Below, in pieces: positions 27,136 through 30,540 of a stretch of DNA of 64,000 nt. The stretch is from NCBI RefSeq assembly GCF_024700885.2, contig NZ_CP117016.1; one strand, 5' to 3'. The position numbers and the translations under genes are program-made. Under the pieces are notes generated by a model, which saw nothing but the letters and a program-made list of their open reading frames with translations, did no database searches and was not told the DNA's origin. Origin of the DNA: Escherichia coli. Its GTDB lineage: Bacteria; Pseudomonadota; Gammaproteobacteria; Enterobacterales; Enterobacteriaceae. Numbering within the stretch: the first letter of the stretch is position 1; every line of letters begins with the position of its first letter.

Positions 27136-27234
27136 CTCTCTTTTTCTAATATGTTAAAGCATCAAAGGTTAAAAATAACGTCGGTCATCATACTTCATGA
27201 ACCCGCAAAAATCATTTCGAAGTTTCGGGTGCTT

Positions 27235-27700
27235 GTCGGATAAGGACAGTTCATTGCTGGACTGCCCTCCTCCCCTAAGAACGGTGCATACCGGTTTCCC
27301 GGTACACCGCTCAAGCCTTTATAAGCCCTTTTTGAGAGAGCCGGTTTCACAACGGTGTAACTGTCGATGGCAATTTGGATGTAACAAGACAAGGTTAGAT
27401 ATGTGAAATACTTATTCCTGATCCAGCGTTTACCTTTCTTTGGATGGCGTCTCACACACCATTGCCACACTTTTAACCATATCTGGTGATCAATATAGCG
27501 GAACATTTTCTTTGCTAATACATGACGATGATAATTCACCCATCCCCGAATGACGGGATTTAGCTGGGATATCAGTAACCATGCAGGCGATGCTTTGTTC
27601 TTCTCTATAATTGATCTTATCTTGTGAAGAAAGTTTTTCAGATTCATCCTTGAGGGTTTGATGTGTGTGATTCATAGACATCGTTTCACTATAATACCTC
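27235..27700 (-). mobile_element. Group II intron 3' remnant (maturase C-terminal fragment plus domain V)
   Basis: ORF fragment with maturase domain-X-like motif (…NPVIRGWVNYHRH…); canonical domain V hairpin GAGCGGTGTACCGG-GAAA-CCGGTATGCACCGTTC on minus strand at 27279-27312. Confidence 0.55.
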
Positions 27701-27703
27701 ACT

Positions 27704-28675
27704 ATGAACAGGGAAATTGAGCCGCGGCTACAGTGGGTAAAACTCTATGAAACGTCCGGTGATGCAGGATTTGTATGCCGTCGCTGTGGCATTTCTCGGC
27801 CCACATTGCGTAAATGGTGGCGCAGATATCTGGCTCAGGGCATCGCTGGTATGGAAAGCCACAGCCGTCGCCCCAAGCGTTCACCATCAACGAAAACCGG
27901 CACTTGCGAAGTCGCTCTGATTCTGGAGTTACGTTCTCAGCGAAATCTGGGAGCAAGACGTATTCAAATCGAGTTAAAACGACTTCATTCAATCTCACTG
28001 GCAATAGCAACAATCCACAAAGTCCTTTGCCAGAATCAGGTTAAACCTGTTGTTAAATTTCGGCTTAAAGCTGATTTCATTCGCTACGAACGCCCTGTTC
28101 CCGGTGATCGGGTTCAGATGGATACCTGTAAAATTGGCCCCGGCTTAAATCAGTACACATCTGCTGATGATTGCACTCGCTACAGAGTCCTGAGGCTCTA
28201 CTCTCGTCGCATGGCGGCAAACACACTGGATTTTATTGATTGTGTTATTGAAGAAATGCCTTTCCCGATACAGCGCTTTCAGACAGACCGGGGAAGAGAA
28301 TTTTTTGCCGTTAAAGTGCAGGAAAGATTAAAAGAATACGGCATCAAGTTTCGTCCAAATAAGCCAGCGTCGCCTCATCTTAACGGAAAGGTTGAACGTT
28401 CCCAAAAGACAGACAAAGCTGAGTTTTACGCTACCGTAGATCTTTCTGCTGATGACCTGAAGGAACTGCTGGCAGAATGGCAGCATTACTATAACTGGGA
28501 ACGTCCTCATAGCGCTCACAACGGTAAAACTCCGATGGAACGCTACTTTGAACTTGCTGAGAAAGCACCATACTCTGATGCCGTTCATGCAAACTATCAG
28601 CCCAATGAAGAGCATATACAGGAACAGAATTACAAGCTTGAACTTGGACTGAGAAAATTGAAACGATGTCTATGA
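27704..28675 (+). CDS. IS481-family DDE transposase
   Basis: 323-aa ORF with N-terminal HTH and integrase-core region (…QMDTCKIGP…FQTDRGREF…NGKVERSQKT…). Confidence 0.6.
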   Translation: MNREIEPRLQWVKLYETSGDAGFVCRRCGISRPTLRKWWRRYLAQGIAGMESHSRRPKRSPSTKTGTCEVALILELRSQRNLGARRIQIELKRLHSISLAIATIHKVLCQNQVKPVVKFRLKADFIRYERPVPGDRVQMDTCKIGPGLNQYTSADDCTRYRVLRLYSRRMAANTLDFIDCVIEEMPFPIQRFQTDRGREFFAVKVQERLKEYGIKFRPNKPASPHLNGKVERSQKTDKAEFYATVDLSADDLKELLAEWQHYYNWERPHSAHNGKTPMERYFELAEKAPYSDAVHANYQPNEEHIQEQNYKLELGLRKLKRCL

Positions 28676-28689
28676 ATCATACAAATGTC

Positions 28690-28982
28690 AGCGCCAGTGA
28701 TATAAGACGGTAACGGTCAAACATCGTGGCGTTGACACAAATGAGTGAGCAAGAGCCGTATGACGCGAGGGTGTCATGTACGGTTCCGTGAGCAGCCGGG
28801 GGGGGGGAAATTCTCTCCGGCTGACTCGACTCGCAGTTTCTGACAGCGGTGGCGAACATGCGGCGGTGTTGTACTCGCTGATCGGTACATGCCGTCTAAA
28901 CAATGTGGAACCAGAAAAATGGCTGCATTACGTCATTGAACATATCCAAGACTGGCCGACAAACCGGGTACGCGATCTGTGA
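28690..28982 (+). mobile_element. IS66-family transposase 3' remnant, interrupted by IS3
   Basis: …AVLYSLIGTCRLNNVEPEKWLHYVIEHIQDWPTNRVRDL then IS3; reading frame resumes after IS3 at 30194 (…SPWKVDLSSQ*). Confidence 0.5.
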
Positions 28983-29006
28983 TCCTACCCACGTAATATG
29001 GACACA

Positions 29007-29832
29007 GGCCTAAGCGAGGTTCTTGTTTTCAAATTGTTCCGGACTGAGGCCGCCACACCAACTGTGCCGCCGCCACCGATTGTAATCACATTCGATATAA
29101 TTAAACACCGTTGCCCGCATTATTTCCCGGCTGATAAAGTGTTCTCCATGGATACATTCCACTTTCAGCGAATGAAAGAAGCTTTCCACGCAGATTATGC
29201 CGCTTCAGTTGCGCCTGATAATCTGCTGAACAGTACTGGCCTCCACGGTCCGTGTGAACGATAACGTTCCGGGGCCTCTTACGCCGCCACAGCGCCATCT
29301 GCAGGGCATCGCAGGCCAGTTGCGCCGTCATGCGTGGCGACATTGACCAGCCAATAACGGCACGTGACCACAGGTCAATGACCACTGCCAGATACAGCCA
29401 GCCTTCATCTGTACGTAAGTGCGTGATGTCTCCTGCCCACTTCTGGTTCGGGCCACTGGCGTAAAAATCCTGCTCCAACAGATTTCCTGACACAGGCAGG
29501 CCGTGTGCGCGGTAGCTGACCGGGCTGAACTTCCGGGAGGCCTTTGCCCTCAGTCCCTGACGGCGCAGGCTTGCCGCCACGGTTTTTACGTTAAAGGGGT
29601 AACCCTGAGCACGCAGTTCATCCGTCAGGCGTGGGGCACCGTAACGCTGTTTTGACCGGGTAAAAGCCGCGAGGACAACGCTGTCGCAGTGTTGGCGGAA
29701 CTGCTGACGCGTGCTTATCCTTGTCCGCCGCTGACACCACGTATACCAGCCGCTGCGGGCCACCCGGAGCACGCGGCACATTGCTTTGATGCTGAACTCA
29801 GCCTGATGTTTTTCAATAAAGACATACTTCAT
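29007..29832 (-). pseudogene. insF: IS3 OrfB transposase (InsF-like), frameshifted by internal deletion
   Basis: InsF-like sequence up to …QLKRHNLRG then out of frame; the native C-terminal coding (…FENKNLA*) is present at the right end in another frame. Confidence 0.6.
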
Positions 29833-30128
29833 TTCAGGCGCTTCGCGAAGTATGTCGCGGCCTTTTGGAGGATAGCCAGCTCTTCATCCCGTTCTGCCAT
29901 CTGGCGTTTGAGACGTGCAATCTCGGTAGACATCTCCAGTTCACGTTCAGAAGACGTCTGCTGATTTTGCTGTTTACTGCGCCAGTTGTAGAGCTGTGAT
30001 TCATACAGGCTGAGTTCACGGGCTGCGGCAGTAACACCGATGCGTTCAGCAAGCTTCAGGGCTTCACTGCGAAATTCAGGCGAATGCTGTTTACGGGGTT
30101 TTTTACTGGTTGATACTGTTTTTGTCAT
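29829..30128 (-). CDS. insE: IS3 OrfA (InsE-like)
   Basis: [32 protein letters not shown]…[15 protein letters not shown]. Confidence 0.7.
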
Positions 30129-30540
30129 GTGAGTCACCTCTGACTGAGAGTTTACTCACTTAGCCGCGTGTCCACTATTGCTGTGTAAGATCACTGTCAC
30201 CCTGGAAAGTTGATCTGAGCTCTCAGTAAGTATCAATACAGTCCTCGCGAGCCGCTTACGAATGAGTATGCCGGAAGATCTCTAAATGTGAATGGTTCTA
30301 TTATGTGGGATACTTACAAAGGCCTCTTACACATATCTGATTGAGGTTTTTTATTATCGAATTTTGTGTAAAATTCATTTCCTATACATAAATGTAAAAA
30401 TAACATCACCCATTGGCTCAAAAAGTGTCCATTAAAAAAGAGATGATTTAGATAAAAAAATGCACTTTGTATGCATTAATATTTTAACCATGAATTAATT
30501 TATACTAAAATGATTATTCTTCTTGTCTTGGAGATAAATT

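Follow-up and report, generated by a model that had tools for sequence, protein, structure and literature searches.

A probably non-functional pile-up of mobile-element remnants, with two group II intron stumps, between aat-like export genes and an AraC-family regulator gene of Escherichia coli

The DNA that separates a set of aat-like export genes from the gene of an AggR/CfaD-family AraC regulator in E. coli is composed of at least seven mobile-element pieces, which occupy positions 27222–30318 of the window (the whole stretch of 64,000 nucleotides analysed). We consider it very probable (roughly 85%) that this block is a non-functional accumulation of mobile elements, for which no function is required. 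Its constituents are all of well-known kinds, and the block as such is ordinary. An initial annotation, placing it at 27195–30300, had described a nested graveyard recording successive insertions, and this description was borne out by family tests with Rfam, Pfam, NCBIfam and BLAST, although the pile-up reaches 30318. The outcome is a precise map of a decayed region for which automated annotation gives scattered pseudogenes only; its importance outside annotation is slight.

Setting and Conservation

The locus belongs to a chromosomal E. coli island and not to a pAA plasmid. The export genes on one side of the block, named aat genes in the initial annotation, are indeed aat-like, but share only about 70% nucleotide identity with pAA aatD. 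On the other side, the regulator protein is 37% identical to AggR, and its start codon lies 222 bp beyond the last fragment. The G+C content of the block is 0.49, versus 0.29 in the cargo segments on both sides. With regard to a chromosomal aat/AggR-like island, nothing specific was found in the literature. The pieces are listed in Table 1; their ends were set by comparison with independent copies, and the names ISEc18-like and ISCro1/IS679-like are taken from the RefSeq annotation of similar copies.

Table 1. Mobile-element pieces in the block, with window positions, strand and basis of assignment.
Feature	Position	Strand	Basis
IS66-family (ISCro1/IS679-type) tnpB 3' end, 13 nt, AAGCACCCGAAAC	27222..27234	-	Intron A 3' exon remnant
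Group II intron A remnant, 3' 429 nt	27235..27663	-	RF00029, GIIM, fold, alignment to L012/L014
IS481-family IS, 1020 bp	27664..28683	+	NF033577, ends from independent copies, inverted repeats
Mini-IS21, 52 bp (first 28 bp of IS21 + last 24 bp)	28686..28737	+	Identical to IS21 termini
Group II intron B remnant, last ~92 nt (domains V + VI)	28738..28830	+	RF00029, fold, E.c.I3 alignment
IS66-family (ISCro1/IS679-like) tnpC C-terminal tail, first piece (intron B 3' exon)	28831..28979	+	DDE_Tnp_IS66_C, identity
IS3 copy, 1214 bp	28980..30193	-	Alignment to intact IS3 and pMAR2 IS3; NF033516
IS66-family last 63 bp, right terminus ...GAGCCGCTTAC	30197..30259	+	Continues pAST217_1 and E. coli 536 IS66
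59-bp left terminal end of another, putative IS3-family element	30260..30318	-	Cut off by IS66 end

The whole block is present at 99% identity or more in 36 of 5,426 complete E. coli genomes, in which it is already annotated as pseudogenes and fragments. Its order and orientation are the same in all 36 (99.0–100% identity). A comparison with related genomes free of the insertions, proposed in the initial annotation, was carried out and yielded no carrier without the elements: searches that started from the aatD-like end and from the sequence upstream of the regulator revealed no empty site among the carriers, and no genome was found that carries the aatD-like gene without intron A. These observations bear on the proposal that the block is a likely recombination hotspot. 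It does contain many repeated elements with copies elsewhere in the genome, and one insertion sequence (IS) at a putative rearrangement junction, both of which speak for a site that is still active and time and again rearranges how the aat-like genes are joined to the regulator. However, the uniformity of the block in the 36 genomes, the absence of aatD-like gene carriers without intron A and the alignment of two variant alleles, which differ by slippage indels of only 8–44 bp, argue against such activity. The hotspot claim is therefore not borne out, and we regard a presently active hotspot as improbable.

Two Group II Intron Stumps

The domain V hairpin first reported at 27279–27312 (minus strand) falls inside an Rfam match to RF00029 (group II intron domains V/VI; 27235–27314, minus strand; 53.8 bits versus a gathering score of 40), and the accompanying maturase tail was recovered as a Pfam GIIM match of 86.5 bits (cut-off 23) in the ORF 27195–27647 (minus strand). 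This remnant, designated intron A, retains the tail of the maturase (X) domain, the end of the HNH domain, and domains V and VI, the fold showing a bulged A at 7 nt from the 3' end (z = −6.7 versus shuffles). When aligned with its longer relatives L012 and L014, it shows an internal deletion of about 320 bp that took out the endonuclease region; homology to both extends to 27663, where the 5' side of the intron is cut by the IS481-family element. The missing reverse transcriptase and HNH parts are supplied by proteins P0011 and P0014. In the window, no D1–D4 Rfam match corresponding to domains I–IV was obtained, and the TIGR04416 profile is matched at positions 287–353 only, with 49.7 bits versus a cut-off of 300. 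Intron A does not amount to a functional intron, with complete ribozyme and reverse transcriptase.

No full-length close copy of intron A was found in complete E. coli genomes, and other ltrA introns resemble it at only about 80% over about 116 nt around domain V; its longer relatives were obtained solely from a protein search and short-read assemblies. Their homing site is the 3' end of tnpB in IS66-type elements, as seen from intron-less ISCro1/IS679 copies, whose alignment to L014 begins exactly at the 3' exon base, after ...CCGAC. In the window, 12 of the 13 nt in the exon remnant match the 3' exon AAGTACCCGAAAC of L014, and the sequence beyond this remnant (27136–27221) is unique to the island. 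The latter feature would fit an arrival of intron A by ectopic retrotransposition downstream of the aatD-like gene, never inside an IS66 element, but a 12/13 match to the homing-site exon directly after the 3' splice site is unexpected for an unrelated target and makes this scenario very unlikely. As for homing of intron A into IS66, no named intron matched the tnpB 3'-end site. Tentatively, intron A may represent an unnamed enterobacterial lineage homing into the IS66-type tnpB 3' end; the IS66 family would then be targeted at three sites by three introns, and an inversion mediated by IS481, which joined two of these introns tail to tail, would be preserved in the window. This remains a possibility to which we give rather less than even credence.

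The second stump, intron B, gives an RF00029 match at 28751–28830 (plus strand; 50.9 bits versus the gathering score of 40) and a fold with z = −6.4. It aligns with the 3' end of E.c.I3-2b (E. coli 536) and of the pAST217_1 copy, the similarity starting only at CAAATGAGTGA, about 92 nt from the 3' end, and the exon junction in tnpC (GACTCGAC/TCGC) is identical to that of both copies. The domain V/VI match and the homing site in an IS66-family tnpC place intron B in E.c.I3, as a fragment rather than a full-length copy with ltrA. E.c.I3 is known to home into IS679, and its coordinates were taken from the published survey (PMC3522654).

Least credible of all is a co-option of the fragments, whereby outward promoters of IS3 or of the IS3-family end would drive the AraC regulator, or the domain V/VI RNAs would act in trans as a split intron: 222 bp separate the last fragment from the start codon of the regulator and domains V/VI are predicted to be structurally intact in both stumps, but both introns lack domains I–IV and the reverse transcriptase here, and debris of this kind is frequent in the mobile elements of E. 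coli (PMC3522654).

Insertion Sequences of the Block

The IS481-family transposase gene noticed at the outset (27704–28675, plus strand) is intact, codes for 323 aa and matches NCBIfam NF033577 over positions 2–284 of 284 (253.4 bits versus a cut-off of 224). The element is bounded by 25-bp terminal inverted repeats (24/25 matching) and, judging from its sequence, is the only one in the block that still looks mobile. It has no target-site duplication, its flanks being TTTGATG and AATGAGT. Perfect 7-bp duplications surround three of six relatives (NB4833, AGTCAGG; UTAK-3, CCTTATG; pVP443, TTTTAGT) and are absent from the other three. The missing duplication may thus mark a rearrangement junction, and is suggestive of one past rearrangement at this element; it is not proof, because half of the relatives lack the duplication as well. 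Two other readings of the flanks, as a duplication of 3 bp (ATG) or as a microhomology junction of 6 nt (ATGAGT), were rejected as coincidence, since the relatives make 7-bp duplications.

An IS66 remnant had been proposed downstream of this element. The tnpC tail is indeed of this type, with a Pfam DDE_Tnp_IS66_C (PF13817) match of 48 bits (cut-off 30) and 92–94% identity to annotated ISCro1/IS679 tnpC, but 28684–28830 corresponds to a 52-bp mini-IS21 and the 3' end of intron B. In mini-IS21, 28686–28713 and 28714–28737 are identical to the left and right termini, respectively, of an IS21 annotated in L010, and neither istA nor istB is present; the unit is flanked by a 4-bp direct repeat, CAAA (28682–28685 and 28738–28741), and folds as a hairpin (z = −5.3). 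An identical 52-bp unit with a matching internal junction recurs in other contexts, so this shell may have arrived already miniaturised instead of decaying in place.

As initially described, the IS66 tail is split by an IS3 copy flanked by a 3-bp target duplication, CTG (28977–28979 and 30194–30196). After the second CTG, the sequence picks up that of the pAST217_1 and E. coli 536 IS66 elements, and its right end (...GCCGCTTAC) matches ISCro1 ends in thousands of records. The TnpC C-terminal element and the type of terminus assign these pieces to the IS66 family; what is present of a complete tnpA-tnpB-tnpC element with both ends amounts to 149 + 63 bp of the right end, plus 13 nt of an oppositely oriented tnpB. 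Another IS66 tnpC fragment (21333–22010), situated to the left of the aat-like genes, has a break point in tnpC about 14 nt from that of the right-hand tail. A single split IS66 comprising both was considered and rejected, as an IS66-type end that belongs to this fragment, and differs from that of the tail, lies at 22060.

The IS3 copy (NF033516, 232.7 bits versus a cut-off of 160) is assigned to IS3 by near-identity, its orfA/orfB transposase and the 3-bp duplication; its orfB is not intact. The frameshifting deletion reported in it is real, but its size is 44 bp instead of about 47 bp, as measured against the orthologous IS3, which strain S1-SRL-01-C has intact at this site, and against the pMAR2 IS3. 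It occurred between two 10-bp direct repeats, TTCCACGCAG, a single one of which is left in the window, at 29184–29193. Strain ECONIH1 shows a different, 17-bp deletion in the same IS3 copy. The three allelic states of this one insertion (complete, 44 bp shorter and 17 bp shorter) show that the insertion came earlier and the decay later, and could serve as lineage markers of the island.

The last piece aligns with the sequence that directly precedes truncated transposase genes in L015 and L016, the similarity ending at ...GGGATACTTAC(A). We take it, tentatively, to be IS3-family from the N-terminus MRKARFTE.

In addition to the second intron stump and the 52-bp IS shell, which a reader of the sequence by itself can overlook, the initial annotation had passed over the 13-nt tnpB exon, the deletion of about 320 bp in intron A, the 59-bp putative IS3-family end and the missing duplication of the IS481-family element.

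Proposed History of the Block

The order of insertions proposed here is drawn from nesting logic only, because no empty-site genome was found. An ISCro1/IS679-like element of the IS66 family landed beside or inside another, putative IS3-family element, and its last 212 bp are all that is left. Its tnpC held an E.c.I3-like intron at the usual homing site, now reduced to domains V–VI. The second, unrelated intron A had entered a tnpB of IS66 type at its 3' end, and is found today inverted with 13 nt of that exon. Both introns may once have resided in one IS66 copy, two copies being equally compatible. The intact IS481-family element, which has no target duplication, now sits between the two stumps. 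Two inverted copies of this family may have flipped the segment lying between them, or a single intramolecular transposition event may have done so, and later deletion may have removed the remainder; no reciprocal junction of such an inversion was found. An IS21 insertion at the right end of the IS481-family element would have created the CAAA repeat and would now be represented by the 52-bp shell. IS3 was the last arrival, generating the CTG repeat in the IS66 tail, and slippage between the 10-bp repeats then caused the 44-bp loss in this lineage. Read in this way, the block offers a small worked example of IS-homing introns that travelled with the elements they had entered and were later lost together with them, consistent with the published decay of group II introns in Enterobacteriales (PMC3522654).

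Comparison with Known Systems

In their survey of Enterobacteriales group II introns, Leclercq and Cordaux (2012) reported 111 fragments, representing 55 distinct copies; most have only a remote relationship to active introns described so far, and genomic islands and IS elements commonly carry them (PMC3522654). Intron A agrees with this description of fragments, whereas its homing site corresponds to that of no named intron. Intron B shares with E.c.I3 (E.c.I3-2b) the last 92 nt or so, the insertion point in tnpC and the tnpC tail that follows; it differs in being a 3' stump only, in having a G10 run in place of GGGGAGTG in the domain VI loop, and in that mini-IS21 and the IS481-family element replace its upstream part.

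With regard to the IS481-family element, the window copy has the length (1020 bp), the terminal repeats and the transposase family in common with ISEc18. Its nucleotide identity to ISEc18-labelled copies is about 92%, versus 98% to closer unnamed copies, and there is no 7-bp duplication at its site. The IS3 copy is at least 99% identical over its full length to E. coli IS3, for example that of pMAR2, with the same 3-bp duplication and orfA/orfB layout, and is distinguished by the 44-bp deletion, the copies in sister genomes being intact or lacking 17 bp.

Following a plasmid search, the IS481-family element and IS3 were considered as one unit common to pMAR2 and related plasmids; this was rejected, as alignment shows independent insertions with unrelated flanks. 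The window and the bfpL-perA spacer of EPEC pMAR2 differ in all flanks and have no intron, IS66 or IS21 pieces in common, but the pMAR2 spacer likewise contains a relative of the IS481-family element and an IS3, with a virulence operon to one side and the gene of an AraC-family regulator to the other.

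Composition of the Mobile-Element Block

The initial annotation described, between the export genes and the AraC-family regulator, a group II intron domain V with a maturase tail, an IS481-family transposase gene and an IS66 remnant split by an IS3 copy with a 3-bp CTG duplication, and each of these elements was recovered. Its inventory was incomplete, as a second intron, a mini-IS21 and a 59-bp end beyond the IS66 tail had gone unnoticed. The block is genuine, has more layers than first described, and is already annotated in public genomes; the RefSeq annotation of one carrier lists a 'group II intron maturase-specific domain-containing protein', an 'IS481 family transposase', a 'transposase domain-containing protein' and an 'IS3 family transposase, frameshifted'.

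Features of the mobile-element block and of the rest of the window
Feature	Position	Strand	Remarks
sRNA STnc100	8169-8383		Rfam, 136 bits
Afa/AAF-type chaperone-usher fimbrial genes	about 13600-19400
115-aa secreted-looking ORF	19917-20264		In dispersin's position
Second IS66-family remnant	21333-22060		Far side of the aat-like genes
aatPABCD-like export genes	22203-27135
Intron A maturase tail (ORF)	27195-27647	minus	GIIM maturase-specific domain, 86.5 bits
Intron A domain V/VI	27235-27314	minus	Rfam, 53.8 bits (gathering score 40); fold z = -6.7 vs shuffles
IS481-family element	27664-28683		1020 bp
IS481-family transposase ORF	27704-28675		323 aa; NCBIfam, 253.4 bits (cut-off 224)
Mini-IS21	28686-28737		52-bp palindromic unit immediately right of the IS481-family element
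Intron B domain V/VI	28751-28830	plus	Rfam, 50.9 bits; fold z = -6.4
IS66 tail, first piece	28831-28979		C-terminal element in a short ORF ending at 28982, 48 bits (cut-off 30)
IS3	28980-30193		CTG on both sides
IS3 orfB and orfA	within 29101-30137	minus
IS66 tail, resumed after IS3	30197-30259		Ends ...GCCGCTTAC
Terminal 59 bp of another element	30260-30318
AraC regulator	30541-31338		Protein identity 37% to AggR, 38% to CfaD
IS102 RNA	46883-47119		Rfam, 72 bits
tRNA-Ser(GGA)	58468-58555	minus	ARAGORN

Two Introns in IS66 Sequence

The first intron remnant (intron A) folds into domain V and a domain VI whose bulged A lies 7 nt from the end. The maturase tail, used as a protein query, retrieved longer relatives, and their contigs were then compared; relative to these, intron A is about 320 bp short in the stretch from the maturase domain to the end of an HNH endonuclease domain, and its homology reaches 27663, directly at the end of the IS481-family element. 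No close full-length copy was found in complete E. coli genomes. In the relatives, IS66-type sequence follows the intron, and intron-less ISCro1/IS679 elements start matching exactly one base past ...CCCGAC. The splice site in the window occupies the same position (27235) and is followed by AAGCACCCGAAAC, which matches the IS66 tnpB exon at 12 of 13 nt, with unique sequence beyond. Intron A therefore formerly lay inside an IS66-type element and is now inverted relative to the right-hand IS66 tail. In a draft E. coli contig (L014, 2470-6356), a single IS66-type element has an intron-A-like remnant where tnpB ends; another, different intron, which looks full-length (Rfam D1D4-7 and domain V), lies about 830 bp inside its tnpC. 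IS66 elements are therefore targets of different introns at several positions.

Intron B, unlike the first in sequence, starts at about 28738 and aligns with the 3' end of E.c.I3-2b from E. coli 536 and with the fuller pAST217_1 copy; its junction with the IS66-family tnpC tail is identical to that of both copies. The E.c.I3 coordinates were taken from the supplementary table of Leclercq and Cordaux (PMC3522654), who give IS679, of the IS66 family, as its homing target. Of note, ten consecutive G (28798-28807) stand in the domain VI loop of the stump, in place of the GGGGAGTG of the E.c.I3 copies. As for the terminal 59 bp beyond the IS66 tail, this sequence immediately precedes a truncated transposase gene in other genomes.

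The IS481-Family Element and Mini-IS21

The ends of the IS481-family element were set by independent copies, and its terminal repeats agree at 24 of 25 positions. Identity is ~92% with ISEc18-labelled copies and ~98% with unnamed ones, and the element occupies a single place in most matching genomes (median 1, highest 3). Three of the six relatives examined are bordered by 7-bp duplications; the window element has none, its flanks being TTTGATG and AATGAGT, and it stands between the stumps of two different introns that point in opposite directions.

The first 28 bp of mini-IS21 correspond to the left terminus of annotated IS21 and the last 24 bp to the right one. IS21 duplicates 4 bp of its target, which fits the CAAA present on either side. 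Since the same 52 bp are found as a unit elsewhere in E. coli, in different surroundings, mini-IS21 is either what is left of a collapsed IS21 or a miniature derivative that was mobilised in trans. On a haemolysin plasmid (L011, 3009-3070), a variant with four differences adjoins the same IS66 tnpC tail, at most 2 nt from the E.c.I3 insertion point and with no intron stump; this arrangement may be a further-deleted relative of that in the window.

Order of Events

Nesting and duplications show that IS3 went into the IS66 tail, that IS21 inserted where the IS481-family element ends on the right, and that intron B entered tnpC and intron A tnpB. Two inverted IS481-family copies, or one intramolecular event, could have inverted the intron A-intron B segment of a single IS66 element, after which a deletion would have taken away all sequence to the left of the 13-nt exon remnant. 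A pair of IS66 copies, separate and oppositely oriented, fits the data as well as this single-copy inversion.

The IS3 boundaries were established by alignment with the orthologous intact IS3 of S1-SRL-01-C and the IS3 of pMAR2. An internal deletion had been correctly noticed, but it measures 44 bp rather than ~47; the missing piece lies between two copies of TTCCACGCAG and was lost by slippage. The same insertion exists in three states, namely intact (S1-SRL-01-C), with the 44-bp deletion (window), and, in ECONIH1, with an independent 17-bp deletion (window 29060-29076) replacing it. Because sister genomes carry the insertion intact or differently deleted, these alleles show that IS3 inserted before decay set in. 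In ECONIH1, 8 bp of the IS66 tail (GTGGAACC, window 28921) are further duplicated in tandem, and such allele differences could serve as lineage markers.

Island Setting and Distribution

The patch, with a G+C content of 49% versus 29% in each neighbour, is flanked by a five-gene ABC/TolC export cluster and the regulator. The cluster is no more than aat-like; its last gene shares ~70% DNA identity with aatD of pAA plasmids. An EAEC-plasmid-like module is present as a chromosomal copy at 13600-31338; of the 5,426 complete E. coli genomes, about 40 have it, and a literature search retrieved no paper on it. In the second IS66-family remnant, the middle part of tnpC runs to ...ALGR (22010) and is joined to a different IS66-type terminus, ...GTGCGCTTAC (22060); the export cluster is thus bracketed by IS66 debris. 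Elsewhere in the window, the tRNA-Ser(GGA) gene is possibly the integration site of the island, and at about 35450-44800 a DarT/DarG toxin-antitoxin pair is inserted between hsdR and hsdS of a type I restriction-modification system (annotation of L001, an annotated locus, at an offset of +7099), which an M48 metallopeptidase gene adjoins.

The 3.3-kb segment 27100-30400 is 100% identical to the chromosome of several E. coli strains, and is full-length at 99.0-100% identity in 36 of the 5,426 complete genomes; a plasmid search found no copy of it as a unit. The proposal that the block is a recombination hotspot does not agree with these data: order and orientation are invariant in the 36-40 complete genomes carrying the island, and the two aligned variant alleles differ by indels of 8 to 44 bp, a pattern unlike that of an active hotspot. 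A rearrangement happened before the island spread, and no more than that is shown.

Comparison with Known Systems

Every component falls in a described family, and introns that home into insertion sequences and then fragment inside islands are textbook behaviour (PMC3522654); the block itself is of little significance. The bfpL-perA spacer of the EPEC plasmid pMAR2 (L003, 5500-7600) has a similar layout, in which an intact IS3 accompanies a degenerate IS481-family relative beside an AraC regulator, but it arose from independent insertions.
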